The notes under the pieces were generated by a model that saw only the letters and a program-made list of their open reading frames with translations, was not told the origin of the DNA and made no database searches. From assembly GCA_016706865.1 (NCBI GenBank), contig JADJIS010000002.1:972768-1036767 (forward strand): DNA of 64,000 nt, read 5' to 3'. Below are positions 9,217-59,934 of this stretch, piece after piece. Position numbers and translations under genes: made by a program. Numbering within the stretch: the first letter of the stretch is position 1; each line of letters starts with the position of its first letter. The DNA comes from Bacteroidota bacterium. GTDB taxonomy: Bacteria; Bacteroidota; Bacteroidia; Chitinophagales; BACL12.

Positions 9217-9228
9217 AATTTAAAAACT

Positions 9229-9829: not shown

Positions 9830-9860
9830 ATGCGTTGATTTTAAAAGAAAAAATTAGTTT

Positions 9861-31237: not shown

Positions 31238-31258
31238 AATAGATTTAAACTGTTGAAT

Positions 31259-35137: not shown

Positions 35138-35148
35138 AACCGAAACAC

Positions 35149-40562: not shown

Positions 40563-40599
40563 ATTATTTATAATTTTGCAGTTCAAAATTGACAAAAAC

Positions 40600-42880: not shown

Positions 42881-45253
42881 ATGAAGAAGATTTCTTCGTT
42901 GGGCTTGATCTTATTAGTTGCAAGTACCATTTTTACCCTTAATGCACAAACGCCTGTTGTACCAGCTGTATCATCAGGAACACTTGAATCTTTGGGGTTC
43001 GACCAGACTGAGATTGATGCCATTATGGAAACTACCGGCACTTCAACTTCAACTGCCGTGGAATCTGCCACAATGATACAGGATGCGCAACAGTCGGCTG
43101 TTGATGCTGCCAATAGCCAAATAAACACCCTGGCACCAAATACTTCAGTTATTGCATCTCCTGCTGTTCAGGAGGCTATTGCAGAAGTTATCGGTGATGA
43201 ACCTGCCCCTGCTCCAATTTGGGGTCAGGACTTTTTTCGCAGCGGTTCGATAGACCTGTTTGAAAAAGTGCCAAACTCTAAGGTTGGAGACAACTATATT
43301 CTAGGCGAAGGCGACATGATAACCATTGCAGTATGGGGTTATGCTTATTATAATTCCAATTTTACGATCAATGAGGAAGGGTATATAACAACCATAGAAG
43401 TTGGTAGAATTTATTTGAAAGGGCTTACCTTCAGTGCCGCCAAACAGTTGCTGCGTCAGCGTTTTGCCTCGGCATTTGATCTTACCAATTCAAAATTTGA
43501 TGTTACACTTACCTACTCCAAAAGCATAAAAGTAAATATCGTTGGAGAGGTTGTAAATCCTGGATCTTATAATATTTCCTCCTTTAATACTGCTTTCAAT
43601 GCACTTGTTGCAGCTGGCGGTGTAACAGATATTGGTTCTGTGAGAAATATTCAGATAAAAAGAAATAATCGGGTGATACAAACTTTGGATGTGTATCAAT
43701 TCCTGATGAATCCGGGTGCAACGGATGATACTTACCTGGAAGCTAACGATTACATCGTGGTAAACGGGATAGGCAGAGTAGTGCAGGTAGAGGGAGAAGT
43801 AAACAGACCGACAAAATACGAATTGGTGCCCGGTGAAAACCTCAATGAACTTATTTATTACGCCGGCGGGTTAAAATCAACTGCTTACAAACGCAACGTT
43901 TCCATTTTCCGTTATGTTAACAACGAAAATGTTGTTCTCGATTTCAATCTGGATAGCGTAGAAAGAGAAAAAATTAATTTTCCGTTGATAAATGGAGACA
44001 GAATAGTTTTCTCTAAAATTCCGGAAGTAATTGAAAATATTGTTACCATTCAAGGAGCTTGTCGTTTTCCAGGGAACTATCAACTTACTGCAGATATGCG
44101 TATTTCCGACCTGATTGAAAAAGCAAAAGGTTTGAATTATGATGCATACACCGACCGTGCTTATTTAATTCGCAAGGATGCTAAAATGAATGATGTTTAT
44201 ATTCCTTTCGAATTGGATGAAGTATTGGCAAATTCAAATTCTCCTTTCAATTTTAAATTAGCAAAATTTGATGTTATTGATATATTTTCAAAGGAAGAAT
44301 TCAGAGAAACTTTTAATGTGTCAATAGATGGTGCGGTGAAAATGCCTGGATCATTTCCATATTATCAGCAAATGACCTTAAAGGATCTTCTTTATTATTC
44401 GGGCGGATTAAAGGTAGAGGCTGCAAATAATAAAATAGAGGTTTCCCGTATCGTAAATTTTAGTGATGCGAGCAATCAAAATGAACCTACCAGAGTTGTT
44501 GTGCAATCAGTTTCAGTGGATAAAGCACTGGATGTGGATGATGCAGCAAATTCGTTTGTGCTTCAACCTTACGATCAGGTTTATGTAAGAACTACACCTG
44601 AATTTGAATATCAGAAAAATATTACCATTTTGGGTGAGGTTAAATATCCCGGAGTTTATACTTTATTATCGCGCACAGAAACTTTGGCAGATGTAATTGA
44701 AAGAGCAGGCGGTTTAACACAATGGGCTTATGCAGAAGGAACAACAATGAACAGATTGGATGTTACTTCTACCCTGGTTTTTCTTGGAAAGGCAATGGAA
44801 AATCCCGAATCGAAATATAATTATGTAATGCGGGCAGGTGATATTGTTACTGTTCCTAAACAAGGTGATCTTGTTGCATTAAAGGGAGAAATAAAATATC
44901 CGTTTATCGGTGATCCGGGAACTGTTGTAGTTCCTTTTGAAAAAGGTAGATCCGCTCGTCATTTTATCAAAAAATATGGTAAGAATTTCGATGATGATGC
45001 CAAAAGAAGTGAAACTTATGTAGTTGAACCAAATGGTTATGTTCACAGAACACATAATTTCCTATTTATACATTTTTATCCTAGAGTAAAAGTAAAAGGA
45101 AGCCAAATTGTAGTTCCACAGAAACCGGAAGAGAAAATTGAGATCGAACAAAATGTTGAACCAAAGGAACCATTTGATTGGAATACTTTTGCAACTACAT
45201 TTAGTGCAGGTATCTTGAGTTTTGCAACAATTTATGTTTTGTTACAACGCTGA
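42881..45253 (+). CDS. Polysaccharide export protein (Wza-like, multiple SLBB domains)
   Basis: Signal peptide from MKKISSLGL. Poly_export motif (YILGEGDMITIAVWG) followed by repeated SLBB-like modules (..GEV..PG.Y...). C-terminal TM segment. Confidence 0.8.
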   Translation: MKKISSLGLILLVASTIFTLNAQTPVVPAVSSGTLESLGFDQTEIDAIMETTGTSTSTAVESATMIQDAQQSAVDAANSQINTLAPNTSVIASPAVQEAIAEVIGDEPAPAPIWGQDFFRSGSIDLFEKVPNSKVGDNYILGEGDMITIAVWGYAYYNSNFTINEEGYITTIEVGRIYLKGLTFSAAKQLLRQRFASAFDLTNSKFDVTLTYSKSIKVNIVGEVVNPGSYNISSFNTAFNALVAAGGVTDIGSVRNIQIKRNNRVIQTLDVYQFLMNPGATDDTYLEANDYIVVNGIGRVVQVEGEVNRPTKYELVPGENLNELIYYAGGLKSTAYKRNVSIFRYVNNENVVLDFNLDSVEREKINFPLINGDRIVFSKIPEVIENIVTIQGACRFPGNYQLTADMRISDLIEKAKGLNYDAYTDRAYLIRKDAKMNDVYIPFELDEVLANSNSPFNFKLAKFDVIDIFSKEEFRETFNVSIDGAVKMPGSFPYYQQMTLKDLLYYSGGLKVEAANNKIEVSRIVNFSDASNQNEPTRVVVQSVSVDKALDVDDAANSFVLQPYDQVYVRTTPEFEYQKNITILGEVKYPGVYTLLSRTETLADVIERAGGLTQWAYAEGTTMNRLDVTSTLVFLGKAMENPESKYNYVMRAGDIVTVPKQGDLVALKGEIKYPFIGDPGTVVVPFEKGRSARHFIKKYGKNFDDDAKRSETYVVEPNGYVHRTHNFLFIHFYPRVKVKGSQIVVPQKPEEKIEIEQNVEPKEPFDWNTFATTFSAGILSFATIYVLLQR

Positions 45254-45289
45254 TAATAATCAATAAAGCAAAAAACGAGAACAAAGATT

Positions 45290-46435
45290 ATGCAGTACGA
45301 TCGTCCATATAATGATGAAATAAATATTGGTGATTTATTTACCAAATTCGGTGAATACCGCCGTTATATATTAAAAAAGTGGTGGGTTGTTTTAATAGTG
45401 GCAATTTTACTTGCCATTCTACTTCGCTTTTATTCTGTTTGGAAAAAAGAAAGTTATATTTCTCATGCAGATTTTGCCGTAAAAGGAACAGAAGGTTCTT
45501 CCACTTCCTCTTTGGCCTCACTGGCCAGTTCATTCGGTATCGGACTTGCAACAGGATCGGAGTTTACAAATGAATTATTTTTGGGAGTACTTCAATCAAG
45601 AACACTTGTAAAACAGGCACTTACTGAAAAAAGAACATTATCTGTAAAAAAAGGAGTTCCTCCACGCGAAGATTATCTTGCCAATTTCTATATCGAAATG
45701 TATCCGAAATGGTCGAAGAAAAAAAAGGTGAAGGATTTTAGATTGGAACATGGAAGTTTAGATTCTTTAACAAGAAAAGAGGATAGTTGTTTAACAGTTA
45801 TTTATGACGAATTTATTGAGAATGATATCACAACCGAATTCAGCGATGATCTCGGGATGAATCAAATGGAGGTTTCGTCACTCAGCAGAGATTTTTCATT
45901 TTATATGGCTGACTATCTCGCTTACGCAGGATCTGCTTATTATATCAGCACTCAAGTAAAAAATGAGGAAATAACCGTAAATTTTTTACAGACTAAATCG
46001 GATTCTTTAAGAAAATTATTGGAACAAAAGGAAGACCTATTAGCCAAATTGCAGGATAATTCCAGTTATCAGGTAAAATTTGCAGGTTATCTCGGTCAAA
46101 ACAGATTATTGCGCGACATAGGATTGGTTACCACGGAATATTCCACCACCTACGCTCAATTACAATTGGCTTTATTCGATCTTCAAAATAAAACACCACT
46201 AGTTGATATTATTGACCAACCAAAATATTCTACAATAAAGGAAAAAGAACAGACAACAATGTTCATGATAATTGGATTTATTTTGGGTGCATTTTTAACA
46301 AGTATAGGATTGGGTGTGCGCAAATATATTCGCGACTCTGTAGAGGAAGGCAAACAAAAGCAACTTGTGATCGAAAAATATAACAAGGAAAAAGCAAGTC
46401 AATCATTAATAGATACAGAAAGTAATAAAATTTGA
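45290..46435 (+). CDS. Polysaccharide co-polymerase / chain-length determinant-like protein (no kinase domain)
   Basis: N- and C-terminal TM helices flank a ~300-aa coiled-coil-rich domain. No P-loop seen. Position is directly after the Wza-like gene. Confidence 0.55.
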   Translation: MQYDRPYNDEINIGDLFTKFGEYRRYILKKWWVVLIVAILLAILLRFYSVWKKESYISHADFAVKGTEGSSTSSLASLASSFGIGLATGSEFTNELFLGVLQSRTLVKQALTEKRTLSVKKGVPPREDYLANFYIEMYPKWSKKKKVKDFRLEHGSLDSLTRKEDSCLTVIYDEFIENDITTEFSDDLGMNQMEVSSLSRDFSFYMADYLAYAGSAYYISTQVKNEEITVNFLQTKSDSLRKLLEQKEDLLAKLQDNSSYQVKFAGYLGQNRLLRDIGLVTTEYSTTYAQLQLALFDLQNKTPLVDIIDQPKYSTIKEKEQTTMFMIIGFILGAFLTSIGLGVRKYIRDSVEEGKQKQLVIEKYNKEKASQSLIDTESNKI

Positions 46436-46467
46436 CACTGAGGTGTAATTAAAGAATTTGTTGGAAA

Positions 46468-47940
46468 ATGGTTTTTAACTCTTTACATTTTTTAATTTTT
46501 TTACCGGCTGTTATCTTCCTGTACTTCGCCATTCCCTATAAATGGAGATGGTTGTTGTTATTATTCGTAAGTTATTATTTCTACATGTGTTGGAAAGCAG
46601 AATATGCTTTCCTGATAGTTCTTTCTACCTCCATCGACTATTTGTGCGGCTTGCAAATGTCGAAACACGAGGATAAAAAGAAACGAAAACCCTGGATGAT
46701 ATTGAGTATTGTGATGAATTTATCCATACTCTTTCTATTTAAATATTTTAATTTCTTTAACGATTCTGCACGCGTTGTATTCGATAGCCTAAATATTTTC
46801 TACAACGTTCCCGAATTTAAATTACTGCTGCCGGTAGGATTATCTTTTTATACATTTCAGGCAATCAGTTATACCGTGGATGTTTATAAGGGCACAGCAA
46901 AAGCAGAAAAGAATTTCGGTTTTTTTGCAACATTTGTTGCCTATTGGCCGCAATTGGTGGCAGGGCCAATTCAACGTAAAGAAGATTTTCTTCCCCAGTT
47001 AAAACAAAATTTCGATTTTGATTATGAAAGAGTAAAACAGGGGCTCATCAGGATCCTTTACGGTTTCTTTAAAAAGGTTGTAATAGCCGACAGGCTCGCA
47101 ATATTTGTAAGAGAAGTATATAATCAGCCGGGCGATCATGGTGGATTTGCTGTTATTCTGGCAACATGGTTATTTGCTATTCAGGTATATTGCGATTTTT
47201 CGGGATATTGTGATATAGCAATTGGTTCTTCCAGAATAATGGGTCATAATCTCAGGGAAAATTTTAAAACGCCATATTTCGCAAAATCTATCAGAGAATT
47301 CTGGGAACGATGGCATATCACCCTTACAGTTTGGGTGCGCGACTATCTCTATATACCTATGGGTGGAAGTAAAGTTTCGTTCCCGCGTATGCTATTTAAT
47401 AATTTAGCTGCCTTAACTATTATGGGATTTTGGCATGGAGCCAACTGGACTTTTATCATGTTCGGATTTGTGCATGGATCTTTTATTGTGATCTCACGAA
47501 TATGGGATAGATACTTTCCTAAAATTAATTTGCCTACACTTTTGCCAAAAGCAAAATGGCTGACAAATTTTTTATTGATGTTCTGGATATTCAATTTAAC
47601 ATGTATTCCGGATATTTTCTTTTGTTCCAGAAATATCAACGAATCATGGATAATTATTCAAAGTATATTTAATCATCCCGATACAACATGGGCGCTAATT
47701 AATTCAAGTTCGCCGGCTGGTTCAACACCTAGTGTGATAGATTTTTGGCTGTCAATATTTTTTGTAGCAATTTTATTATACACTGATTATAATTTATATA
47801 CGCATAAAGATGTAACGATAGAAAAAAGAATTGCTGCTAAACCGGTTTATTTAAGATGGGGATTTTACATTTTGATAACAGTATTGGTATCATGGTTTGC
47901 AGTTACAACAGATTCCGTATTTATTTATTTCCAATTTTAA
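46468..47940 (+). CDS. MBOAT family O-acyltransferase (AlgI/DltB-like)
   Basis: Polytopic membrane protein with FWERWHITL.. and the conserved His region (GFWHGANW). Confidence 0.85.
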   Translation: MVFNSLHFLIFLPAVIFLYFAIPYKWRWLLLLFVSYYFYMCWKAEYAFLIVLSTSIDYLCGLQMSKHEDKKKRKPWMILSIVMNLSILFLFKYFNFFNDSARVVFDSLNIFYNVPEFKLLLPVGLSFYTFQAISYTVDVYKGTAKAEKNFGFFATFVAYWPQLVAGPIQRKEDFLPQLKQNFDFDYERVKQGLIRILYGFFKKVVIADRLAIFVREVYNQPGDHGGFAVILATWLFAIQVYCDFSGYCDIAIGSSRIMGHNLRENFKTPYFAKSIREFWERWHITLTVWVRDYLYIPMGGSKVSFPRMLFNNLAALTIMGFWHGANWTFIMFGFVHGSFIVISRIWDRYFPKINLPTLLPKAKWLTNFLLMFWIFNLTCIPDIFFCSRNINESWIIIQSIFNHPDTTWALINSSSPAGSTPSVIDFWLSIFFVAILLYTDYNLYTHKDVTIEKRIAAKPVYLRWGFYILITVLVSWFAVTTDSVFIYFQF

Positions 47941-47943
47941 AAC

Positions 47944-49074
47944 ATGAAAAAATTATTTCTTAGGTTTGGGTTATTGGTTTTGATAGTTTTGGTTTTTAGC
48001 CAGATCGCTATCATTACTATGCCATTTTCCTGGGGGAATATCAGGCTTAACTCTAAATATGAATCATACGTTGAAAACAGCGATCAATATAATACGCTGT
48101 TTATTGGGGCAAGTACAACCTATAGGCATATTAATCCTGTGGAGTTCGATTCTATTGTGAATGCAGAGCGACCTGAATTAAAAATAAAGTCCTATAATTT
48201 CGGCATTCCTGCAAACAGAACTCCACAATCAGTTTACATGCTTGAAAACTTAATTAAGTATGATAAATCCAATTTGAAATACGTAGTGATAGACCTTTCC
48301 GAACTTACAAAGATGGGTGCAGATAATCTTCACAAAAAAGAAATGATATTTTGGTATACCCCGGATAATATTTTTGACGTGATGAAAGCTAGTTGGGAAT
48401 CAGAAAAAGGAATTGCAAAAAAAGTAAGTGTTCCGGGTTTACATGCCTTTTCGTTCTGTGAAAAATCATTAATGATCGGAATGGGAACTGCCATAGTTCA
48501 ACAGGCAACTGGAATGAATGTTGACGAAAGAACATTAGGGCCTGATAGAAGAGGATTTTATTCACTTGATCAGGAAATGAAAGATGATCCGGATGGAGAC
48601 CTTGCTGTGCGTTATTCTGAATTGCGCACTCCTGATACCATAGCTTTTCGCACACAACGTTGTCAGTTTTTATTCGATAAGTATGAAAATGCAACAGTAA
48701 ACCCGAATAAAACCATAGAAAAAAATCTCACCGACCTGATAAAATATTGTGAGCAAAATGATATTAAATTAATAATTATGCTTTCGCAGCGTTTAGGCGA
48801 CAGGTATGAATATTTGATCCCCCTTTACAATCAATTGCCTGCAGAAAATAAAATTGGTTTTCAGGACCCTTCTGCTTATCCAATGTTAAACGAAAGAGAA
48901 AATCTTTTTGATCTTGCACATTTAAATGCTCCTGGAGCAAAAATATTTACCGAAATATTTGTTGATGAATTTTTGCAGAGAATTGATATGCAAAATGGTA
49001 TTCAACCATCTGAAAATGCCAAACCTGATAGTTTAACGATCATTCAAAATACTTCTGCGGATGATTCGTTATGA
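47944..49074 (+). CDS. SGNH/DltD-like partner of the MBOAT acyltransferase (hypothetical)
   Basis: N-terminal anchor, block-I-like LFIGASTTY, C-terminal DLAHLN (DxxH). Lies 3 nt after the MBOAT gene. Confidence 0.5.
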   Translation: MKKLFLRFGLLVLIVLVFSQIAIITMPFSWGNIRLNSKYESYVENSDQYNTLFIGASTTYRHINPVEFDSIVNAERPELKIKSYNFGIPANRTPQSVYMLENLIKYDKSNLKYVVIDLSELTKMGADNLHKKEMIFWYTPDNIFDVMKASWESEKGIAKKVSVPGLHAFSFCEKSLMIGMGTAIVQQATGMNVDERTLGPDRRGFYSLDQEMKDDPDGDLAVRYSELRTPDTIAFRTQRCQFLFDKYENATVNPNKTIEKNLTDLIKYCEQNDIKLIIMLSQRLGDRYEYLIPLYNQLPAENKIGFQDPSAYPMLNERENLFDLAHLNAPGAKIFTEIFVDEFLQRIDMQNGIQPSENAKPDSLTIIQNTSADDSL

Positions 49075-50585
49075 TCAGCAAACTTAAAAAGAAAATTGTA
49101 AGAAAATTTGGAGATCAGGATTTTTCTGAGATCTTTAAGAAGGGATTTTCCGGAACAATTATTAGTTTATTAGGAAGAGTGACCGGTTACCTGCTATTAA
49201 TGGTGATCGGATGGCTATATGGACAAGAAGCCATGGGAGTGTATACCGTTGGATTAAGTATTCTCAGTATTGTTGGAATTTTCGGAAGGTTTGGAGTGGA
49301 TATGGCCATGTCGAGATTTGTAGCACAGTATAGCGCAGCAAACCGTTGGGACCTTGTGCAACATACTTACAAGATCGCATTAAAAATTGTAATACCTATT
49401 AGTGTATTTTTATCTGCAGCAACTTTTTTTATTATTCCTTTTTTTACCGATAATTTATTTGACCCTACGGCACCCGATTTCGAAAAATATACATTGTACA
49501 TGCAAATTTTTGCAGTGTCAATTTTGTTTTATGTATTGGGAGGATTAAGTGAGGAATGTATTAAAGGCCTCAAAAAAACAAAACAATTTAATTGGATTTC
49601 ACAAGTTGTAAATCAGTTAGTTGCTATTTTGTTTTTATTATTATTCGGATTATTTTCCAAAGATCAGTTATGGGTTAATTTATCTTATTGTATAGGAATT
49701 TTTGTCGCATTTTTAATCGCTCAGTTTTTATGGATTTTCTATTTAAAAAATCCTGTAATTGCGAAAAGTGAGTTTTTTGTAAAAAAAGAAAAAAAGAACA
49801 AAAAGGATCTGCCTTCCCAAGCTGCCCTTAATGCTATTATAGAATCGCATGAAAAAATCACCACCCCTGAATTACTTAAGGTTTCTGCTCCTATGATGTC
49901 GGCGAAATATCTTACCATGATATATACCTGGCTTGATATTTTGATTTTGGCGTGGTACGCTACTGAACCTATGGTTGCAATTTACAGAGTGGCAACCCGA
50001 TTAACCTCATTGGCTACAATTCCACTCATTTCAATAAATGCAATTGCGGGACCTAAATTCGCGGAGGCGTACGGTGCCAAGGATGATAAACGTCTTCAAA
50101 ACAGTGTCAGGCAAGCAACCCGACTTATATTCTGGTCGTGTATTCCATTTCTTTTCTTATTTTTAGTTTTTCCTAAATTTTGTTTGTGGACTTTCGGAAA
50201 AGGTTTTACAACGGAAGAGGCAATTATTGTATTTATTATTGTAACGCTCGGGCAGGCGGTAAACGTTTTAACAGGACCGGTTACAGTGTTACTTAATATG
50301 ACCGGCCGCCAAAAGGTTACCATGTATTATGCACTGGCAACGGTTGTGATAGATGTTGGATTAAATTTGATATTAATTCCCATGTATGGAATTATTGGAG
50401 CGGCTATCGCAACAGCAGTCTCACGAACAATTTTAAATTTGGGATGTGCGCTGCAGATCTATTTTACAATGGGTATCAATACAATTTATAATCCATTTGC
50501 CGATATTGCCGCTGCGTTTAGTAAAAAGAAGAAAAAGAATAATAATAATGTTTCTGAAATAAATAACGATACGGAAATTGAATGA
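49071..50585 (+). CDS. Oligosaccharide/polysaccharide flippase (Wzx-like, MOP superfamily)
   Basis: About 12-14 TM segments, size and locus context. Start overlaps the previous stop. Confidence 0.6.
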   Translation: MISKLKKKIVRKFGDQDFSEIFKKGFSGTIISLLGRVTGYLLLMVIGWLYGQEAMGVYTVGLSILSIVGIFGRFGVDMAMSRFVAQYSAANRWDLVQHTYKIALKIVIPISVFLSAATFFIIPFFTDNLFDPTAPDFEKYTLYMQIFAVSILFYVLGGLSEECIKGLKKTKQFNWISQVVNQLVAILFLLLFGLFSKDQLWVNLSYCIGIFVAFLIAQFLWIFYLKNPVIAKSEFFVKKEKKNKKDLPSQAALNAIIESHEKITTPELLKVSAPMMSAKYLTMIYTWLDILILAWYATEPMVAIYRVATRLTSLATIPLISINAIAGPKFAEAYGAKDDKRLQNSVRQATRLIFWSCIPFLFLFLVFPKFCLWTFGKGFTTEEAIIVFIIVTLGQAVNVLTGPVTVLLNMTGRQKVTMYYALATVVIDVGLNLILIPMYGIIGAAIATAVSRTILNLGCALQIYFTMGINTIYNPFADIAAAFSKKKKKNNNNVSEINNDTEIE

Positions 50586-51492: not shown

Positions 51493-51493
51493 T

Positions 51494-52372: not shown

Positions 52373-52373
52373 A

Positions 52374-53711
52374 ATGGGGATATTAGCACAGGAAAAAGGT
52401 ATATTTAAAGAACCAATATCCGTTTTTGGTAAAACGGTTATATTGATCATATTTATTTTATTTACAACAAGGATTTTAACACGAACCCCACTTGTAGACT
52501 ACTACACTCCATTTGAAATTCTTTGGTATTTATTTATTATCAGTTTTACAGTCGTATACGCTCTCTATATTTTTATGGTGCGTAAAACAATTGATGAAAT
52601 TAACTATTATTATGTAATGATAATTGTTCTTCCGGTCTGGGCAGGACTTGCCGCTGTAATTAGTGAAGGGCAAAATTTCATGATCGGACTTTCTTCGCAA
52701 CGCCATTGGTACGGAATAAGCGGAATTTTCGTAATTATTTACCTGCTGCAAACACGTTTTATTACCATCGGCGACCTCTATAGAGCACTTATTTGGCTTG
52801 GATGGGGAACAATGATTTATTTTATCATGTGTTATTTATTTCTCGACCCAAAAGCTTATCTGGATTATTCTTTTGTTGGATTTAGCGATATTAAAGGTGG
52901 ATATCGATTTAAATTTGGAATTGACTTTATTGCATTCCTTTCAGTATACTATACGGTTAAATATGTTAAACAACGCGATAGAGTAAGTTTATGGTTTTCT
53001 GTAATCAATTTGTCGTATCTCTTTTTCCTCCATCAGGGACGCTCCGTAATGCTTTCCGTTATAGCTACACTTTTTGTATTTTACATGTTTGAAGTGAACT
53101 GGCAGCGAGCAGTCAGGATTTTCACCTCTATTGGAGTTGGATTTCTTGTGATCATGGGTATTATGTATGCCATTATTCCTGATCGGGTAAGTGAATATAT
53201 TTTTCAATATACCAGTTTATTTGCCTTAATTTTTACCGGCGATGTCACGGGAGAAAGTTCTGTTGATGCGCGCATCGAAGAGATAGGTATTTTATTGATC
53301 TATCTGCAGGATTATGCCATCGGCTGGTGGATAGGAGTGGGAAAACTTGGAGCTGAAACTCAAACCTCTTCAGGAGTTAATGATATAACAACGGTTCCTC
53401 CGGGTGATATCGGAATTCTGGGTTCTATTATGACTTATGGAATTCTGGGATCTTTGGTAATTTATTTTCAATTTTTGATCGCGTTCAGAAGCTTTAAATT
53501 TATCAGAAGATATAAACATGAGCCATTTATGATTGCCTCAAAATATTTTTTGATATTTTGTTTTTTATCTTCGTTGGCGAAAGGATATTTATTTATGCAA
53601 CCAGGTTCTACTGCTGTATTTATTCTAATAATTTATGCATATAAATTGTTAGAGGTGCAAATGGATAAACAAGGTTTGCCTGAAACTATAGCACTTAAAA
53701 ATTCATTTTAA
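52374..53711 (+). CDS. O-antigen polymerase/ligase-like polytopic membrane protein (Wzy-like)
   Basis: About 10-12 TM segments with a larger loop in the C-terminal third, plus locus context. Confidence 0.5.
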   Translation: MGILAQEKGIFKEPISVFGKTVILIIFILFTTRILTRTPLVDYYTPFEILWYLFIISFTVVYALYIFMVRKTIDEINYYYVMIIVLPVWAGLAAVISEGQNFMIGLSSQRHWYGISGIFVIIYLLQTRFITIGDLYRALIWLGWGTMIYFIMCYLFLDPKAYLDYSFVGFSDIKGGYRFKFGIDFIAFLSVYYTVKYVKQRDRVSLWFSVINLSYLFFLHQGRSVMLSVIATLFVFYMFEVNWQRAVRIFTSIGVGFLVIMGIMYAIIPDRVSEYIFQYTSLFALIFTGDVTGESSVDARIEEIGILLIYLQDYAIGWWIGVGKLGAETQTSSGVNDITTVPPGDIGILGSIMTYGILGSLVIYFQFLIAFRSFKFIRRYKHEPFMIASKYFLIFCFLSSLAKGYLFMQPGSTAVFILIIYAYKLLEVQMDKQGLPETIALKNSF

Positions 53712-53728
53712 ATTTAAATTTGTAAAGC

Positions 53729-54727
53729 ATGCAATTGATCGACAAGGAAAAAAAAATACTCGTAATTGGATCCCTAAATGCCAATCCTGCCGATAGAGAA
53801 ATTAGTCGTGACAATATTCGTTCTATGCAACTCATTGATGAGGATACTAAAATAGTGCCCGTAAATTTTTTTAATGCATGGGGAGACCTTGGCATGAGTA
53901 GCATGTGTTGGCACGAGAATGATCCTTATGTCCTATATATCGCTTCCAGTAATGAAGTATTTCGTTTTATTTTAAAGGACAACCGGTACGAAAAATTGGA
54001 AATACCCAATCTTACCGATATTCATGAAATTACCATGATCGGAAAATTTATTTGGATATCCAATACAAAACATGATGAAATAGTAAGTTATAATATTGAA
54101 ACAAATTCAATTGGCGAACGCATAAATCTAACAGATTTTAAATCAAACGCTCCGGAAGAGGGTGAAAGTGATGCAGATACGGAAGTAGTGGATAAATTTC
54201 ATTGTAATCTTATTTTCGAAGGGTATGAAGGTGATCTTTATATTTTAGTTCATCATACTTCCGGCCGTCAATTAATGAAAAGAATTGCCCAAAAATTTAT
54301 TAAAAGTCAGGGAAATGGTGGAGTGGTGAATATTTCAAAAAGAAAAAGATTTCCGTTAAATTTTAAGGCTCCACATAGTGTAAGAAAGATAAATAATCAA
54401 TATTGGGTGTTTGACAGCGGACATTTTGAATTAAAAATATTTGATAAGAACTGGAATTTTTTAAGAACTATGGATACCAAAGGTTTTGGAAGAGGAGGAG
54501 ATCTGGATAGCAATAAAAATCTGTATTACGGTGGTGTAAGCGAAACACGAAAAAGATATCTCGGATTGTTTCCGGGTGGTGAAGCCGTTCCCAATATGGT
54601 GCAGGTAATTTCGGTGCCAGATTATAAATTGATTGGCTCTGTTAAAATCCCGAACATTGAACAAATAAACAACGTATATTGTTTGCAAAAAGATGTTGCC
54701 GATCTATTGTTGAACTTTAAAGCATAA
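53729..54727 (+). CDS. Hypothetical protein (no family recognised)
   Basis: 332-aa ORF embedded co-directionally in the polysaccharide locus. No signal peptide or TM segment evident. Confidence 0.5.
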   Translation: MQLIDKEKKILVIGSLNANPADREISRDNIRSMQLIDEDTKIVPVNFFNAWGDLGMSSMCWHENDPYVLYIASSNEVFRFILKDNRYEKLEIPNLTDIHEITMIGKFIWISNTKHDEIVSYNIETNSIGERINLTDFKSNAPEEGESDADTEVVDKFHCNLIFEGYEGDLYILVHHTSGRQLMKRIAQKFIKSQGNGGVVNISKRKRFPLNFKAPHSVRKINNQYWVFDSGHFELKIFDKNWNFLRTMDTKGFGRGGDLDSNKNLYYGGVSETRKRYLGLFPGGEAVPNMVQVISVPDYKLIGSVKIPNIEQINNVYCLQKDVADLLLNFKA

Positions 54728-55687
54728 ATGGAGAACTATAAAACCATATTGCCTACATTTATTGTTGTTGGCGCCAATAAAGGCGGCACAACTTCTATAT
54801 ATCATTATTTAAAACAACATAAACAGGTTTATTTATCCCCTGTAAAGGAACCCCATTTTTTTTCGAAGGATATAGATGTGAATTTATTTAAAAGAGAATT
54901 CGCACAAAATAAATTGCAGGATATCGATAAGTATGTGAACGGCGAAATGAAGGAAGAATTTCATGCTGCTTTCATAAGAGATGTCGAGCAGTATAAAAAA
55001 TTATTTTCTAAAGTACAAGACCAAAAAGCTGTTGGAGAACTAAGCACGTCCTATTTATTTTCAGAAGTAGCAGCAAAGGAAATTAAAGCTTTGATACCTG
55101 ACTGTAAGATCATTATTTGTTTGAGAAATCCTTTCGATAGAGCGTATTCTCATTACAGAATGAATTTGTGGACCGGAAACAGCAACGAATTTGATTTTTA
55201 TAAGGCTTTGGTAGAAGATTATGATTATAAACCTAAAGTTTGGGGTAATGCCCATTTGTATACAGAGATCGGTTTATATTATCAACAGGTAAAACGATAT
55301 TTAGATCTATTTGGTAAGGATAATGTGAAGATCATTTTTACTGAGGATATGAAAAAGAATGCGGCTCAGGTTGTAAAAGAATTATATGAATTTATTGGGG
55401 TGGATAGTTCCTTCGTGCCCGATACCTCTACAAGGTACAATGAAGTATTTACTCCAAAATATAAAAATATTACCTGGTTTCTCAATAAATCAGGTATTCG
55501 GCCGTTGATGAAAAGATTATCACCGCAGGTGCTGAAAAATATTTTTGTAAAAGTATTTTATAAGGGAAAGGGAGAAAAAGGTGAAATACCTGCAAACGCT
55601 AAACAATTTATGTTAGAAAAGTTTTCCGAAGATATTTCCAAGTTATCCGTATTGTTGAACAAAGACCTGTCAAACTGGATTAAATGA
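54728..55687 (+). CDS. Sulfotransferase (PAPS-dependent)
   Basis: FIVVGANKGGTTSI and CLRNPFDRAYSHY. Confidence 0.8.
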   Translation: MENYKTILPTFIVVGANKGGTTSIYHYLKQHKQVYLSPVKEPHFFSKDIDVNLFKREFAQNKLQDIDKYVNGEMKEEFHAAFIRDVEQYKKLFSKVQDQKAVGELSTSYLFSEVAAKEIKALIPDCKIIICLRNPFDRAYSHYRMNLWTGNSNEFDFYKALVEDYDYKPKVWGNAHLYTEIGLYYQQVKRYLDLFGKDNVKIIFTEDMKKNAAQVVKELYEFIGVDSSFVPDTSTRYNEVFTPKYKNITWFLNKSGIRPLMKRLSPQVLKNIFVKVFYKGKGEKGEIPANAKQFMLEKFSEDISKLSVLLNKDLSNWIK

Positions 55688-56736
55688 CCCTAAACATGAA
55701 TCCAAAAGTTTGTATAGTTCTGGTTAATTACAAAACCTGGCAAGATACTATTGAATGCATGGAAAGCATTTTAAAAAGTGATTATCGCAATTACCAGATC
55801 GTTGTTGTAGAAAATGGAAGTGAAGATGAAAGCTGGGAAAAATTTTTAAAATGGGCGCGGGGAGAGGTGAATACCTCCTTGACTGCTGATAATAAATTAT
55901 TAAATTTATCTTGTCCACCGGCGCACAAACCACTTCTTTATTTTAGGGCGGAGTCTGGTGAATCTGATACCATGCGACTGGGTCCCTTGGATGGTATAAT
56001 GCCTATATTATTTATTAAAAGCAAAATAAACCTTGGATTTGCCGGAGGTAATAATACCGGAATGCGTTATGCACTCAACAGTAATTTCGATTATGTTTGG
56101 CTGTTGAATAACGATACTGTGATAGAAAAAAATGCTATTTCCGAACTGGTAAAATATGCAGAAATAAAAAGGCAGGAAAAACAAAATATTGGCATTATTG
56201 GAAGTAAATTAATGTTATATCATAAACCTGAAATTTTTCAGGGCGTGGGCGCTGTTTTTAATAAATATTCAGGAAAATCAAATATTATCGGTGCACAGGA
56301 AAAAGATAATGGACAGTACGATAACGTGGAAATTGAATGTAACTATGTAATAGGTGCATCCATGTTTGTGAGTTCAGCATTTTTATTGGATGTGGGATTA
56401 ATGAGTGAAGAGTATTTTCTGTACAATGAAGAAAATGATTGGAGCGCAAGAGCAAAATTAAAGGGATGGAAAGTTGGTGTGGCAACTCAAAGCAAAGTTT
56501 ATCATAAACAAGGGGCATCCACCGGCAACAGTCCTAAAAAAAGTAAATGGCAACTCAAAGCATTAAATTATAAATACAGAGGAAAAATAAAATTATATAA
56601 AAAATATTATCGCCCTCAGTTATTTTTTTTATATCTTCATCTGATCACAAGAAGTTTAAAATATATTTCAAAAGGAAATATGAGTGAAGCAAAAGTGATC
56701 TATAAGGCCATTTTTAATACCAAATTTGAATCATGA
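55684..56736 (+). CDS. Family 2 glycosyltransferase
   Basis: CIVLVNYKTWQDT.., GFAGGNNTG, LLNNDT (DxD-like). ATGA overlaps at both ends. Confidence 0.8.
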   Translation: MTLNMNPKVCIVLVNYKTWQDTIECMESILKSDYRNYQIVVVENGSEDESWEKFLKWARGEVNTSLTADNKLLNLSCPPAHKPLLYFRAESGESDTMRLGPLDGIMPILFIKSKINLGFAGGNNTGMRYALNSNFDYVWLLNNDTVIEKNAISELVKYAEIKRQEKQNIGIIGSKLMLYHKPEIFQGVGAVFNKYSGKSNIIGAQEKDNGQYDNVEIECNYVIGASMFVSSAFLLDVGLMSEEYFLYNEENDWSARAKLKGWKVGVATQSKVYHKQGASTGNSPKKSKWQLKALNYKYRGKIKLYKKYYRPQLFFLYLHLITRSLKYISKGNMSEAKVIYKAIFNTKFES

Positions 56737-57464
56737 TCATAAGTCACAAACATAAATACATTTTTGTAGAACTGCCACAAACGGCAAGTAGTGCTATTGC
56801 TAAAGAATTGAAAACGAATTACGATGGCCATGAAATTTTATTTAAACATGCACTCTACAGTACCGACTTTTTGAAGAAGGCCACCGCTGAAGAAAAAACC
56901 TTTAAAGTAATTAGTGGATTGCGCAACCCTATGGATATTTGTGTGAGCAACTACTTTAAATTTAAAACCGATCACGAAAACAGATATTCACAACCACGAT
57001 TAATGAAACATGGTTTTTTAAGAAAATATATCATGCGTTGGTGGAATGTGAGACAATACAAATCCATTATTGAAAAAGGAGAAAATTTCGAAGATTTTTT
57101 TATGCGTGCATATAGTTTTCCTTATGCAAGCTGGAGTATAATTGAACATAAACGCATGAATTTTATCATTCGTTTTGAGAATTTGAATAACGACTTTGCC
57201 GAAGCCTTAAAAATTATCGGAGTCGAAAAAGTAAGGGATATACCGGTGGCTAATAAAACCGCTGATAAAACAAAAACATTCTGGGAATACTACGAAAGCG
57301 ACAAAGCAAAAAAACGCGCTAAATATATTTTCGGACCCTATTTAAAACGTTGGAATTACGATTTTCCTGAAAGCTGGAATAATATCAAAGTACCATGGTA
57401 TTCATTTATGATGTATAATTGTATTAATGTGGCGAGGATCGTTTTTTGGAAATACCTTCGTTAA
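56733..57464 (+). CDS. Sulfotransferase family 2-like protein
   Basis: N-terminal YIFVELPQTASSAI resembles the hIPKtgGtS PAPS loop. IIRFENLNNDFAEALKIIG resembles the family-2 C-terminal motif. Confidence 0.5.
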   Translation: MIISHKHKYIFVELPQTASSAIAKELKTNYDGHEILFKHALYSTDFLKKATAEEKTFKVISGLRNPMDICVSNYFKFKTDHENRYSQPRLMKHGFLRKYIMRWWNVRQYKSIIEKGENFEDFFMRAYSFPYASWSIIEHKRMNFIIRFENLNNDFAEALKIIGVEKVRDIPVANKTADKTKTFWEYYESDKAKKRAKYIFGPYLKRWNYDFPESWNNIKVPWYSFMMYNCINVARIVFWKYLR

Positions 57465-57533
57465 TTGATACTTAACAATTGATAATTGACAATGATAGTC
57501 GGCATGATGATTAAGCTTCGGAGGTAATTGATA

Positions 57534-57645
57534 ACTCAGAACTCAAAACTCAGAACTCAGAACTCAAAACTCAGAACTCAGAACCCCGAACTCAGAACCC
57601 CGAACTCAGAACCCCGAACTCAGAACTAAAAATTCAGAACTAAAA
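57534..57645. repeat. Sixteen in-phase heptamers (ACTCAGA and variants ACTCAAA/ACCCCGA/ACTAAAA)
   Basis: Parsed base by base as 16 x 7 = 112 bp with no phase slip. The hierarchy is 21-mers x2, then 14-mers x3, then 14-mers x2. It ends 3 nt before the TTG at 57649. Confidence 0.95.
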
Positions 57646-57648
57646 ACA

Positions 57649-58593
57649 TTGCAAAACCTTCCAACATTTATAATTGTAGGTGCCGTGAAAGCGGGAACAA
57701 CTTCATTGCATGAGTACTTGCAATTGCATCCGGAGGTGTATATGTCGCCGATAAAGGAGACGAATTTTTTTAGTGATGCGGATATGATGTTTGATGATTT
57801 TAATGTGGATTACAAGCAAGATGTATCAATTAATGTAGATAAATTTCTTTCGGGTGATATGGAACATAAAATACATATTGCACATGTAAGAACCTGGGAG
57901 CAATATCAGAAATTATTCAGGAATATTAAAAATGAAAAGGCGATAGGTGAGGTTTCGAATTCGTATCTATATCTTCCATCCACCGCAACAGCAATTAAAA
58001 ATAAACTTCCCGAAGTTAAAATTGTAATGATATTAAGAGATCCTGTTGAAAGATTATATTCTCAGTTTTTAATGAATCTGAAATTGGGAAAAATAAAAGA
58101 AAAGGATCTTTTAAAAGAAATTGAAGCTGATCAGCAAAAACAAAAAAAGGGATGGGGAGTTAGTCATTTATATCTGGAAGTTGGAAATTATTATGAGCAG
58201 GTAAAAAGATATTACGATCAATTTCCCAAAGAACAGATCAAGGTGATCCTATTTGATGATTTTAAGAAAGATGCGAAAGGAACAATGAAGGATCTTTTTA
58301 AATTTTTAGGAGTGGATCCAGAATTTGAACTCGACATGAGCAAACGATATAATGAAGCCGGAATGCCGCGATTTGGGAAATTAAATTATTGGCTCACACA
58401 GATAGGTGTCTATGGCTTGGTAAAAAGAATTTTCCCTCCGGACCTAAAAAACAAAATAAAGGGATTGATCTACTCACAGGAAAACATACCAAAGATCACG
58501 GAGGCAGAAAAAAATCATCTTAAAGCATATTACCGTGAAGACCGGGCAAAACTCGCATCATTGATAGGCCGCGATCTCAGCAATTGGGACTGA
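57649..58593 (+). CDS. Sulfotransferase (PAPS-dependent)
   Basis: FIIVGAVKAGTTSL and ILRDPVERLYSQF. N-terminus is collinear with the 54728 paralog. TTG start. Confidence 0.8.
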   Translation: MQNLPTFIIVGAVKAGTTSLHEYLQLHPEVYMSPIKETNFFSDADMMFDDFNVDYKQDVSINVDKFLSGDMEHKIHIAHVRTWEQYQKLFRNIKNEKAIGEVSNSYLYLPSTATAIKNKLPEVKIVMILRDPVERLYSQFLMNLKLGKIKEKDLLKEIEADQQKQKKGWGVSHLYLEVGNYYEQVKRYYDQFPKEQIKVILFDDFKKDAKGTMKDLFKFLGVDPEFELDMSKRYNEAGMPRFGKLNYWLTQIGVYGLVKRIFPPDLKNKIKGLIYSQENIPKITEAEKNHLKAYYREDRAKLASLIGRDLSNWD

Positions 58594-58641
58594 TTCCCAT
58601 GGGTTTAACCCGATTATTTTGGTTATTTCAGGCTTTGTCCG

Positions 58642-59895: not shown

Positions 59896-59934
59896 AATGT
59901 TTGCGACCCTTACTGTCGTTATTAAATCTCTCAT

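Follow-up and report, generated by a model that had tools for sequence, protein, structure and literature searches.

The 64-kb stretch of DNA analysed here, referred to as the window, originates from an uncultured wastewater Chitinophagales bacterium (Bacteroidota). It contains a chromosomal locus of 13 co-directional open reading frames (positions 42881–58593, forward strand), which is located between metG on one side and rpsP on the other and whose GC content equals that of its flanks. As described in an earlier sequence-only reading, most of the genes overlap or abut, with intergenic gaps of −8 to +36 nt and a single 184-nt spacer ahead of the last gene. The start at 42881, already chosen in that reading, is the better choice for the first gene since it yields the signal peptide MKKISSLGLILLVASTIFTLNAQ and a Bacteroidetes-type TAnnTTTG element precedes its ATG by about 20 nt. 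A terminator-like hairpin (58600–58612) is found downstream of the last gene. The locus comprises the following features:

42881–45253, +: Wza/OPX-type outer-membrane polysaccharide exporter, 790 residues (PF02563, 6e-20; signal peptide)
45290–46435, +: PCP-like (Wzz/KpsE-like) co-polymerase, two TM segments, 381 residues (sub-threshold profile matches, topology)
46468–47940, +: MBOAT membrane O-acyltransferase, DltB/AlgI-like (PF03062, 1.9e-28)
47944–49074, +: SGNH-fold DltD-like MBOAT partner, N-terminally anchored, periplasmic (triad, fold matches)
49071–50585, +: Wzx-type flippase, MOP superfamily (PF01943, 5e-13; PF13440, MatE, MurJ)
50578–51492, +: ST1, heparan-sulfate-type sulfotransferase (PF00685, 57.3 bits; PF13469, 48 bits)
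51494–52372, +: ST2, heparan-sulfate-type sulfotransferase (PF00685, 71.6 bits; PF13469, 45.6 bits)
52374–53711, +: Wzy-like polymerase (O-antigen polymerase/ligase superfamily), polytopic membrane protein (TM segments, homology)
53729–54727, +: DUF4915/TIGR03032-like beta-propeller, cytoplasmic (PF16261, 34.5 bits, cutoff 35)
54728–55687, +: ST3, heparan-sulfate-type sulfotransferase (PF00685, 71.1 bits; PF13469, 53 bits)
55684–56736, +: GT2 (GT-A) glycosyltransferase, soluble, the only one of the locus (PF00535, 1.2e-14; PF13641)
56733–57464, +: fifth sulfotransferase, divergent Sulfotransfer_2-family protein (PF00685, E 0.0033; family relatives)
57465–57648, no strand: variable spacer containing two tandem arrays of heptanucleotide repeats, directly upstream of ST4
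57649–58593, +: ST4, heparan-sulfate-type sulfotransferase (PF13469, 61.9 bits; PF00685, 57.4 bits)

ST1 to ST4 exceed the gathering scores of both relevant families, with 57–72 bits for PF00685 compared to a threshold of 22 bits, and 46–62 bits for PF13469 compared to 27 bits. The sequence-only reading had proposed four clear PAPS-type sulfotransferases with two shared motifs and had regarded a failure in PAPS-binding models as evidence against its claim; all four proteins pass these models and both motifs are literally present in each. ST1 contains GTARAGTTS, with an Arg in the 5'-PSB loop, KEPCFF and RDPSERAYS; ST2 GAQKAGTTT, KETKFF and RNPADRAYS; ST3, assigned by order of listing, GANKGGTTS and RNPFDRAYS; and ST4 GAVKAGTTS, KETNFF and RDPVERLYS. 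A profile built from 22 related sulfotransferases shows G15, G20, T21, T22, E41, R133, P135 and S141 to be invariant, and the Glu of its KEpxFF motif aligns with that of QEIHFF in 3-OST-5. This profile matches the bacterial sulfotransferase 3rnl at 2e-83 and the heparan-sulfate enzymes 3-OST-5, 3-OST-3A1, 3-OST-1 and NDST1 at 1e-25 to 1e-21, compared to 2e-12 or weaker for cytosolic SULTs, and the PDB matches of ST3 are led by 3rnl (2e-49), followed by NDST and 3-OST. Judged by these comparisons, ST1 to ST4 are closest to heparan-sulfate 3-O/N-sulfotransferases, and they retain the PAPS loops together with a Glu that is a candidate for catalysis. Their best sequence and profile matches, the animal 3-OST/NDST enzymes and 3rnl, have the 5'-PSB loop, the 3'-PB motif RxPxxRxxS and the Glu of (K/Q)ExxFF in common with them; 3rnl is a structural-genomics entry with no acceptor assigned. 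However, the animal counterparts reside in the Golgi lumen as type II membrane proteins and have the finished polymer as substrate, whereas neither a signal peptide nor a TM segment was detected in any of the five sulfotransferases or the beta-propeller of the locus. The sulfotransferases are on this basis soluble and cytoplasmic, with a lipid-linked oligosaccharide as presumable substrate. Each paralog is 28–44% identical to the others, with about 42% identity between the paralogs ST3 and ST4, and is retained as a 1:1 ortholog in the clade, which argues for non-redundant specificities.

The acceptor is suggested by the genomic context and the similarity to heparan-sulfate enzymes. Instead of a polysaccharide, it could be a sulfolipid-like lipid, a metabolite or a protein, in which case the position in the operon would be incidental, or the enzymes could be inactive with no PAPS being made, a set of explanations that we regard as very improbable. 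Bacterial PF00685/PF13469 enzymes do include lipid, Nod-factor and polyketide sulfotransferases, with CurM and a PKS sulfotransferase matching the 22-sequence profile at about 1e-9, and the window is devoid of PAPS genes. Still, carbohydrate (heparan-sulfate) enzymes are the best structural relatives by at least 13 orders of magnitude in E-value, and the sulfotransferase genes are translationally coupled to or abut those of Wzx, Wzy and GT2, in an interleaving that all 11 genomes share and that is seen again in other phyla. Moreover, decay is excluded by the strong purifying selection on all five sulfotransferases, and related loci carry cysDNC or cysC.

The fifth sulfotransferase reaches no Pfam threshold, with PF00685 as its sole match (17.3 compared to 22 bits). 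It has 825 representative relatives, and 44 of the 56 that were aligned match PF03567, thus sustaining its previous description as family-2-like, which requires correction with respect to the PAPS loop, where a Gln replaces the usual Lys/Arg. This position (16) is occupied by R, H, L or Q across the family and by Q in 10 of 10 clade orthologs. In the family alignment R64 and P66 are invariant and S72 and E149 nearly so, and the dN/dS of 0.013–0.017 is the lowest of the locus. The claim of a single glycosyltransferase was confirmed. This GT2 protein shows weak matches to rhamnosyl- and galactofuranosyl-transferase families and one internal hydrophobic segment (222–240), which is read as non-membrane. 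Its full-length orthologs in the related loci L013, L016 and L017 are 36–38% identical, a range that also holds for ST3 in L013, L014, L016 and L017. The protein formerly listed as unknown turned out to be a conserved DUF4915-like beta-propeller recurrent in polysaccharide loci. Most of its 98 homologs carry a prior PF16261 annotation, and H99, E100, H158, N160, H175, H216, R255, R274, R276 and Y277 are invariant. Its AF2 model (pLDDT 92.5) retrieves only generic propeller folds (TM about 0.5). Sulfotransferases lie next to the propeller in L013, L014, L016 and L017, and the same holds for 15 of 38 genomes outside the clade. In other phyla, the propeller recurs together with GT2 and an ST3/ST4-type sulfotransferase.

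Among the membrane-associated components, the Wza-like exporter, the Wzx-like flippase and the MBOAT–SGNH pair recognised earlier were all recovered. Wza combines its Poly_export domain with five SLBB domains (PF10531, 5e-49, five stretches) and a C-terminal hydrophobic helix, its hydrophobic segments covering residues 4–22 and 770–788, and Wzx contains about ten hydrophobic segments. The MBOAT finds its best NCBIfam match in DltB (TIGR04091, 4.8e-48, below the equivalog cutoff) and is 39% identical to its counterparts in L013 and L017. Its SGNH partner, for which no Pfam match was found, can be specified as DltD-like. Here, G55-x-S57 and D323-x-x-H326 are invariant, defining an S57/D323/H326 triad, and the top Foldseek matches of its AF2 model (pLDDT 84) are the DltD structures 6pfx, 6o93 and 7dxm (E 1e-4, TM of just 0.34–0.37), followed by TesA SGNH hydrolases (TM 0.6 normalised to the target). 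This arrangement, in which a polytopic MBOAT directly precedes a periplasmic, membrane-anchored protein bearing a Ser/Asp/His triad, resembles DltB/DltD, AlgI/AlgJ–AlgX and PatA/PatB. In contrast to the Dlt and Alg systems, the window pair lacks a DltA/DltC carrier system and AlgF, and its SGNH protein departs from DltD in the low TM-score, the absent Pfam model and its narrow family (43 matches, nearly all within the same Chitinophagales clade).

The two remaining assignments also hold but belong, with those of the SGNH partner, the fifth sulfotransferase and the beta-propeller, to the weaker ones. The classification as PCP-like builds on sub-threshold matches to Wzz (PF02706, E 0.0018) and KpsE (TIGR01010, 8e-7), on an hhalign match to the N-terminus of Wzc (probability 79%, E 1.6e-5) and on a topology with two TM segments (32–50 and 325–343); neither a tyrosine-kinase domain nor a PDB sequence match was detected in this protein. 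The classification as Wzy-like builds on at least eight TM segments and on homology to Wzy_C-positive proteins; the window protein has no Pfam match of its own, its ortholog in L015 shows a weak Wzy_C match, and a PF04932-positive protein of L017 aligns with it over the entire length at 26% identity (E 6e-17).

The locus is carried by 20 species-level genomes. In 11 of 11 related Chitinophagales genomes with sufficient flank, the order of the 13 genes is identical, with no glycosyltransferase gained, and wherever flanks are visible it resides between metG and rpsP. In one relative (L009), the wzy gene is missing. The dN/dS of every gene (0.013–0.09) is similar to that of the neighbouring housekeeping genes rimM and trmD. 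From these comparisons, the locus is a vertically inherited chromosomal operon, fixed and strongly constrained across the clade. The spacer preceding ST4 differs in repeat copy number and length among L001–L003 (arrays at 57462–57497 and 57533–57641), and its heptanucleotide repeats were not found in more distant relatives.

Such strong conservation across species is unusual and more reminiscent of a 'common antigen' than of a variable capsule. The same enzymes might thus synthesise a sulfated O-antigen-like or lipid/LPS-anchored glycan instead of a released polysaccharide or capsule, which we consider unlikely. The 381-residue protein, which has the size and topology of Wzz and no kinase, would then control chain length. 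For the Wzy-like protein, both a polymerase and a ligase of the WaaL type would be conceivable, as the Wzy_C superfamily is common to both and the window protein shows no diagnostic match. However, the locus contains just one Wzy_C-like gene, so that either polymerase or ligase would be missing, and the operon opens with a large Wza/OPX exporter, which is conserved in all complete loci. OPX proteins serve the export of capsules and extracellular polysaccharides and not Lpt-dependent LPS transport.

In agreement with the sequence-only reading, no cysD/N/C, priming phosphoglycosyltransferase, nucleotide-sugar or Wzc kinase genes were found in the whole window; further glycosyltransferase genes were likewise absent from it. 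Adjacent sequence, about 10 kb on the 3' side and about 2 kb on the 5' side, was equally devoid of PAPS-synthesis, priming transferase, nucleotide-sugar and further glycosyltransferase genes. PAPS genes and sulfotransferases within one cluster have served as criterion for sulfated clusters (PMC11641403), and at the window locus itself the two are not found together. In the comparative genomics proposed earlier, missing parts are present in related sulfotransferase-rich Wzx/Wzy loci. In L012 (a Cryomorpha MAG), cysN-cysD-cysC adjoins a Bac_transf phosphoglycosyltransferase, Wzx, five sulfotransferases, Wzy, two glycosyltransferases, Wzc and Wza, and in L014/L069 (Desulfotruncus) a sulfotransferase, the propeller and Wzx occur with an APS kinase (cysC). 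Since the priming transferase has to be encoded off-locus, other glycosyltransferases may be as well. The locus could then represent one half of a split pathway, responsible for modification and export, with several off-locus glycosyltransferases building a larger repeat unit over which four to five sulfates are spread, an explanation with somewhat less than even chances that concerns a hypersulfated disaccharide rather than sulfation as such. Additional GT4 or WecG transferases in L013, L017 and L012 would be in line with this scenario. Conversely, the 13-gene set is invariant in the 11 genomes, and a low glycosyltransferase count recurs in L016, an apparently complete Wzx/Wzy/Wzc/Wza cluster with a phosphoglycosyltransferase, a single GT2 and three sulfotransferases, and in L011, with four sulfotransferases and one glycosyltransferase.

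Collectively, family assignments at the level of HMMs, profiles and folds and comparative genomics support the initial proposal of a sulfated exopolysaccharide pathway, and the locus most likely, and in our view probably, directs the synthesis of a Wzx/Wzy-dependent capsular or extracellular polysaccharide that is polysulfated in the cytoplasm and O-acylated in the periplasm. An off-locus priming phosphoglycosyltransferase would place the first sugar on undecaprenyl phosphate and the GT2, judged by its family, would add the next. The four heparan-sulfate-type enzymes, and probably also the fifth family-2 enzyme, would subsequently add sulfate groups at distinct sites of the lipid-linked unit in the cytoplasm, in line with their family, PAPS motifs and location, with PAPS presumably provided by genes elsewhere. 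At the same stage the beta-propeller might, speculatively, act as modifying enzyme or scaffold. Wzx would then flip the sulfated unit for polymerisation by the Wzy-like protein, export would be mediated by the long Wza and the PCP-like protein, which has no kinase, and O-acylation of the polymer by the MBOAT and its DltD-like partner would take place in the periplasm. Given the ratio of four to five sulfotransferases to one glycosyltransferase, the product is expected to carry a very high charge, as glycosaminoglycans do.

A close parallel in organisation is found in the synechan xss cluster of Synechocystis sp. PCC 6803 (Maeda et al. 2021, PMC8205485), which is likewise Wzx/Wzy-dependent, contains sulfotransferases among glycosyltransferase, Wzx, Wzy and PCP genes, presumably sulfates a cytoplasmic lipid-linked unit and has one component off-cluster, the OPX protein instead of the priming transferase. 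However, xss combines two sulfotransferases with eight glycosyltransferases for an eight-sugar repeat and resides on a megaplasmid with its own regulators, whereas the window locus, from Bacteroidota, combines four to five with one and is placed in the chromosome between housekeeping genes, with an OPX protein, an MBOAT/DltD-like pair and the beta-propeller but no phosphoglycosyltransferase. In marine Gammaproteobacteria (Vibrio sp. KMM 8419, PMC11641403; Cobetia marina KMM 1449, PMC11766843), sulfotransferases are also found inside capsule loci, concomitant with O-acylation of the polymer, and the sulfated structures were proven chemically, whereas the window locus is known from its genes. 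The Vibrio capsule uses an ABC-transporter (Kps) route encoded in a strain-variable 80-gene region with mobile elements, its own cysNDC and few sulfotransferases relative to glycosyltransferases, in contrast to the compact Wzx/Wzy-type window locus, which contains no cys genes and whose conservation extends over several species. Predicted, chemically unresolved sulfated loci were also described for Pontiella sulfatireligans (PMC7356697) and Actinoplanes missouriensis, whose wps-1 (PMC13390465) similarly contains, next to Wzx, Wzy and Wzz, one sulfotransferase of the heparan-sulfate type and one from a second family. These loci from other phyla differ in containing one or two sulfotransferases and many glycosyltransferases, and, as far as the available text of both reports extends, neither a DUF4915-like protein nor an MBOAT pair is listed.

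Sulfated glycosaminoglycan-like polymers have been documented chemically in the extracellular matrix of sludge, with producers and genes described as unknown (PMC10483923, PMC7356697). The locus provides a concrete genetic candidate for such polymers of sewage sludge, and exact copies of the window proteins are found in wastewater metagenomes.

The genes proposed to direct the synthesis of a sulfated polysaccharide occupy the interval between metG and rpsP-rimM-trmD, where 13 open reading frames on the + strand follow each other at distances of -8 to +36 nt, overlapping or abutting, the sole larger gap being a 184-nt spacer ahead of the last gene, which encodes the sulfotransferase ST4. The features referred to in the following are:

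40555-42690, metG, upstream flank of the 13-gene locus
42881-58593 (+), the 13-gene candidate sulfated-polysaccharide operon
53729-54727 (+), beta-propeller protein resembling DUF4915/TIGR03032
56733-57464, family-2-like protein, the putative fifth sulfotransferase
58726-60615, rpsP-rimM-trmD, downstream flank of the 13-gene locus

The GC content of the locus (0.34-0.39) is the same as in the remainder of the window, which contains ordinary Bacteroidota housekeeping genes (uvrC, class A PBP, accC/accB, fabH, efp, pdxA, ksgA, greA, ruvC) together with T9SS-tailed proteins. In this remainder, a TonB-dependent receptor-like protein of 1238 residues with CarboxypepD_reg and Plug domains is followed by open reading frames of 1294 and 371 residues (27521-36210, +), both with zero Pfam matches. 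The start of the first gene at 42881 is still preferred over that of a longer open reading frame, since it provides a signal peptide and, about 20 nt upstream, a TAnnTTTG element, a putative promoter motif of the type typical of Bacteroidetes. Scans for sigma-70 promoters (81 versus 73 expected) and terminators (13 versus 12) remained at background with a sigma-70 model that is unsuited to Bacteroidota, and an Rfam search of the window returned no RNA family.

The four heparan-sulfate-type sulfotransferases ST1-ST4 had been recognized as clear PAPS-type enzymes in the sequence-only reading, and this assignment is borne out by profile searches, in which all four exceed the gathering cutoffs of both PF00685 (57-72 bits, cutoff 22 bits) and PF13469 (46-62 bits, cutoff 27 bits). 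The two motifs named at that stage, a G-x-x-(K/R)-(A/G)-G-T-T(S/T) loop and R(D/N)P-x-(D/E)R-x-YS, are found verbatim in ST1-ST4 (4/4) and in every ortholog, and the same holds for the 5'-phosphosulfate-binding loop (K/R-x-G-T-T/S) and the 3'-phosphate motif (R-x-P-x-x-R-x-x-S), with G20, T21, T22, R133, P135 and S141 being invariant across 22 related sulfotransferase sequences. A profile built from these 22 sequences and searched against the PDB matches the bacterial structure 3rnl (E 2e-83), the heparan-sulfate enzymes 3-OST-5, 3-OST-3A1, 3-OST-1 and NDST1 (E 1e-25 to 1e-21) and cytosolic SULTs (E 2e-12 or weaker). Equally invariant is E41 of a KExxFF motif, which aligns to the glutamate in QEIHFF of 3-OST-5 and which, from established knowledge of 3-OST and NDST enzymes, we presume to be the catalytic base. 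In the carbohydrate subgroup such a glutamate follows the loop lysine by about 22 residues, and ST1-ST4 conform to this subgroup, being closest to 3-OST and NDST. Pfam scores, motifs, the ranking of PDB matches and the glutamate alignment thus all point to carbohydrate-type, PAPS-type enzymes, which is what ST1-ST4 are predicted to be by every sequence criterion. The sulfotransferase paralogs are mutually 28-44% identical and each is kept 1:1 across the clade of related Chitinophagales genomes carrying the locus, which argues for distinct positions or acceptors that they would serve, rather than for redundancy.

The proposed family-2-like sulfotransferase retains its assignment by virtue of its relatives, of which 44 of 56 sampled (26-54% identity) match PF03567 with a best value of 3e-13, but the window protein itself stays below Pfam thresholds, with PF00685 as its only match (17.3 bits, cutoff 22), and its phosphosulfate-binding loop, LPQTASSA, carries a glutamine at the Lys/Arg position of the P-K/R-T-G/A-S/T-T consensus. 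The same glutamine is present in the window protein and all 10 clade orthologs, and across the family, which is large with 825 representatives after clustering at 50%, the position is occupied by R (25), H (17), L (5), Q (4) or N (3). The 3'-PB-like motif R64-N-P...S72 is conserved, and a sequence search of the PDB yielded only a spurious match to a designed protein. A glutamine in the loop might be taken as the mark of a pseudogene, a reading that we reject because the dN/dS of this gene is the lowest in the locus. The fifth protein is thus functional, though perhaps not as a canonical sulfotransferase.

Most of the remaining genes would belong to the proposed Wzx/Wzy pathway. The exporter was confirmed as a Wza/OPX protein with PF02563 and five SLBB domains, the flippase as a Wzx-like protein matching PF01943, PF13440 and MatE, and the single glycosyltransferase (GT) of the locus as a GT2 matching PF00535, whose one internal hydrophobic segment we read as non-membrane and whose sequence found no match in the PDB. 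The PCP-like partner of the clearly identified OPX protein lacks a kinase domain, as described earlier. It has a two-TM topology and is aligned by hhalign with the N-terminal part of the Wzc proteins that related loci encode (probability 79%, E 1.6e-5), but its Wzz and KpsE matches lie below thresholds; a PDB sequence search gave no match, and no kinase is encoded separately anywhere in the window. Similarly, the putative Wzy-like polymerase is polytopic and homologous to a Wzy_C-positive protein (E 6e-17), and its ortholog shows a weak Wzy_C match, but a Pfam match of its own is absent. In one clade member, L009 (DAIMYJ010000126.1, 2046-2606), only about 560 nt separate the ST2 and propeller genes and the wzy-like gene is missing, reflecting either a deletion or an artefact of MAG assembly. 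The MBOAT protein is evident from PF03062 (1.9e-28), from DltB as nearest NCBIfam model and from a conserved histidine motif, WHITL, visible in the translation. For its proposed SGNH partner, a Pfam match is absent, but the family alignment contains an invariant Ser/Asp/His triad (G-x-S57 and D323-x-x-H326), and an AF2 model (pLDDT 84) shows DltD as best fold (E 1e-4) followed by TesA-type SGNH hydrolases, at modest TM-scores of 0.34-0.37 when normalised to the query and 0.6 when normalised to TesA. The invariant residues and the fold matches of the model thus support a candidate SGNH protein with DltD as its nearest analogue.

As anticipated, neither an initiating phosphoglycosyltransferase (PGT) nor PAPS-synthesis genes were found. 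In tblastn and HMM searches cysC, cysD and cysN were absent from the window and from the flanks that were reached through exact-protein look-ups, about 10 kb on the 3' side and about 2 kb on the 5' side, and the same holds for a PGT, of the Bac_transf or another type. The co-occurrence of cysD/N/C and sulfotransferases in one polysaccharide cluster has been proposed as the hallmark of sulfated-polysaccharide clusters (PMC11641403); the window locus does not show it, cys genes being absent from the window and from the flanks reached. In polysaccharide loci of other taxa (L013, L014/L069, L016 and L017), distant homologs of the propeller protein are located between or beside sulfotransferase genes, and two more loci rich in sulfotransferases (L011 and L012) were retrieved with ST3 as query. 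Among these related loci, the hallmark is found in L012 (cysN-cysD-cysC) and L014/L069 (cysC), and a PGT is present in L012 and L016. The loci are composed as follows (ST, sulfotransferase):

L011: gene order Wzx, four sulfotransferases, Wzy, GH5, GT4
L012, Cryomorpha MAG: cysN-cysD-cysC; divergently PGT, Wzx, five sulfotransferases, Wzy, WecG-type GT, GT4, Wzc, Wza
L013, Vicingaceae: ST, propeller, ST, GT2, ST, Wzy-like, MBOAT, partner; plus Wza, Wzc, Wzx and GT4s
L014/L069, Desulfotruncus arcticus (cultured strain DSM 17038): ST, propeller, Wzx, APS kinase, nucleotide-sugar genes
L016, JGI metagenome contig: Wzi, ST, propeller, ST; Wzy-like, GT2, ST, acetyltransferase, Wzx, Wzc, Wza, Bac_transf PGT
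L017, second JGI metagenome contig: four sulfotransferases, GT2, GT4, MBOAT

A high ratio of sulfotransferases to glycosyltransferases, and PAPS genes and a PGT placed either inside or outside of the locus, are thus traits of the family. Full-length identities of 36-42% link the window proteins to the GT2, a sulfotransferase of the ST3/ST4 type, the MBOAT protein and the propeller of related loci, which define a recurrent core. The GH5 gene of L011 (13280-14467, a cellulase family), directly following Wzy in this locus of four sulfotransferases, may encode a chain-trimming hydrolase for a sulfated polymer.

The protein previously left as unknown can now be described as DUF4915/TIGR03032-like, but its scores remain below thresholds for both PF16261 (DUF4915; 34.5 bits, cutoff 35, covering the C-terminal part only) and TIGR03032 (33.5 bits, cutoff 251.5). 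A precomputed PF16261 match is found on nearly all of its homologs, and its AF2 model shows a confident beta-propeller fold (pLDDT 92.5) with many invariant His, Glu and Arg residues. Since a Foldseek search of the PDB matched only generic propellers of 6-8 blades (lactonase-like, YVTN, NHL, WD40; TM about 0.5), no function can be transferred to it, and our literature search retrieved no paper mentioning DUF4915 or TIGR03032. Its position among sulfotransferase genes might suggest a strictly sulfation-specific role. A sulfotransferase is indeed encoded within the fetched flank in 15 of 38 non-clade genomes, within 1 kb in nine of them, but the remaining 23, notably Balneolaceae, show no detectable sulfotransferase within 10 kb, which led us to reject this view. 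Balneola sp. EhC07 and Gracilimonas mengyeensis DSM 21985 are cultured strains in which the propeller is present and a sulfotransferase absent. The propeller is thus polysaccharide-associated and linked to sulfation often but not obligatorily. A Gammaproteobacteria MAG (L074, CAVOGN010000001.1) carries propeller, GT2, family-2 sulfotransferase and heparan-sulfate-type sulfotransferase in the order of the window, and the propeller of a Pseudomonadales MAG (L044) shares 57% identity with that of the window; both observations suggest that the module was transferred between phyla. In a long-read MAG (L007/L039, JADKEK010000002.1, about 9000-10000), two open reading frames make up the propeller gene, of which tblastn covers no more than 182 residues in a single piece, probably owing to a sequencing-error frameshift rather than to decay into a pseudogene.

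A pronounced feature of the locus is its conservation. It is found in 20 species-level genomes with propeller identities of 65-94%, the closest loci coming from MAGs that bear Chitinophagales or Bacteroidota labels. Assemblies with the locus include GCA_016703275.1, JADKEK01 (591-kb contig), JACJXO01 (HK-STAS-BACT-14), CAYXBK01 and JBGAWP01. All 11 loci with sufficient flank contain these 13 genes in an unchanged order, partial loci other than L009, which is devoid of wzy, are consistent with this order, and the flanking genes, where visible, do not differ either, with metG upstream and rpsP downstream. Compared to the two closest relatives, dN/dS amounts to 0.013-0.09 for every gene of the locus, values that are approximate with dS near saturation and that are comparable to those of rimM and trmD. 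A recent horizontal acquisition is at odds with the flank-like GC content, the same chromosomal site across the clade and the housekeeping-like constraint, and was thus rejected. Surface-polysaccharide loci are normally hypervariable, and the observed fixation, unusual for such a locus, suggests that its physiological role is conserved. Proteins of the window recur as exact copies in many metagenome assemblies, one of them labelled wastewater, and, judging by their names, several of the MAGs would originate from activated sludge.

Collectively, the protein families, PAPS motifs, operon-like packing and purifying selection uphold the original proposal of a candidate pathway for a sulfated polysaccharide. 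All five sulfotransferases and the propeller are predicted to be cytoplasmic, and the other proteins show membrane or periplasmic topology. In the Wzx/Wzy pathway that we infer, an unlinked PGT would prime undecaprenyl phosphate and the GT2 would extend it, the sulfotransferases would use PAPS to modify the lipid-linked unit prior to flipping, Wzy would polymerise, and the PCP-like protein and Wza would export the product, which may be a capsule, a released EPS or a lipid-anchored glycan. Further GTs encoded elsewhere may enlarge the repeat unit. The MBOAT/DltD-like pair would acylate the polymer outside the cytoplasm, most likely with acetyl groups, D-alanylation being unlikely because DltA and DltC are absent; any role of the propeller in the pathway is speculative. 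A far-reaching joint reading, which we consider rather improbable as a whole, is that the operon, with only PGT and PAPS provided in trans, would produce a polymer of disaccharide repeats with at least two sulfates per sugar, a bacterial heparin-like hypersulfated glycan built on a lipid carrier before export, that the 'sulfated glycosaminoglycan-like' signal measured in EPS of activated sludge would have a main source in the clade, and that the conserved DUF4915-like propeller would represent a new class of enzymes for making sulfated glycans, present in several phyla.

Among known systems, the closest characterised one is the plasmid-borne xss cluster for synechan, a Wzx/Wzy system with two sulfotransferases to eight GTs (PMC8205485). 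Loci for sulfated CPS are also found in Vibrio KMM 8419, which is of the Kps/ABC type with cysNDC in the cluster (PMC11641403), and in Cobetia, and predicted sulfated-polysaccharide clusters exist in Pontiella and Actinoplanes. In contrast to these systems, the window locus resides in a different phylum, encodes an MBOAT/DltD-like pair and a conserved propeller, contains neither PGT nor cys genes and shows a housekeeping-like fixation across species, and its ratio of sulfotransferases to GTs (4-5:1) is the highest among the clusters compared. Two accounts still describe the sulfation of bacterial polysaccharides as rare except in cyanobacteria (PMC8205485, PMC13390465). According to the literature on wastewater sludge EPS, GAG-like polymers carrying sulfate are common and have repeatedly been measured there, with neither their genes nor their producers known (PMC10483923, PMC7356697), which lends practical relevance to the locus: its 13 conserved genes form a defined candidate in a Chitinophagales clade that is widespread in wastewater. 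GT2, heparan-sulfate-type sulfotransferase and propeller recur in several phyla, cultured strains included. If the proposal holds, the locus would offer soluble bacterial sulfotransferases that act on carbohydrates with distinct regiospecificity, which would help to engineer heparin-like and other sulfated polymers, and it would give treatment plants a genetic marker of sulfated EPS.

Two observations concern the 3' part of the locus and its surroundings. Because N-sulfation would need a de-N-acetylase, we record a PIG-L family GlcNAc de-N-acetylase gene on the opposite strand, 3.4 kb downstream of the locus (62039-62755, -). It adjoins a glutathione peroxidase gene, a position kept in L019 and L020, and is probably a thiol-cofactor (bacillithiol-type) gene unrelated to the locus. 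The spacer ahead of ST4 contains about four copies of AATTGAY just past the stop codon of the fifth sulfotransferase (57462-57497) and about 15 heptamers of the AACTCAG/AACCCCG type (57533-57641), the latter array stopping 8 nt short of the start of ST4. In the closest relatives (L001-L003) the spacer is longer (318-401 nt) and holds the same heptamer types in different copy numbers, and in more distant relatives it measures 9-92 nt or the genes overlap, with repeats being absent. These arrays could form an element that varies by strand slippage and thereby controls ST4.
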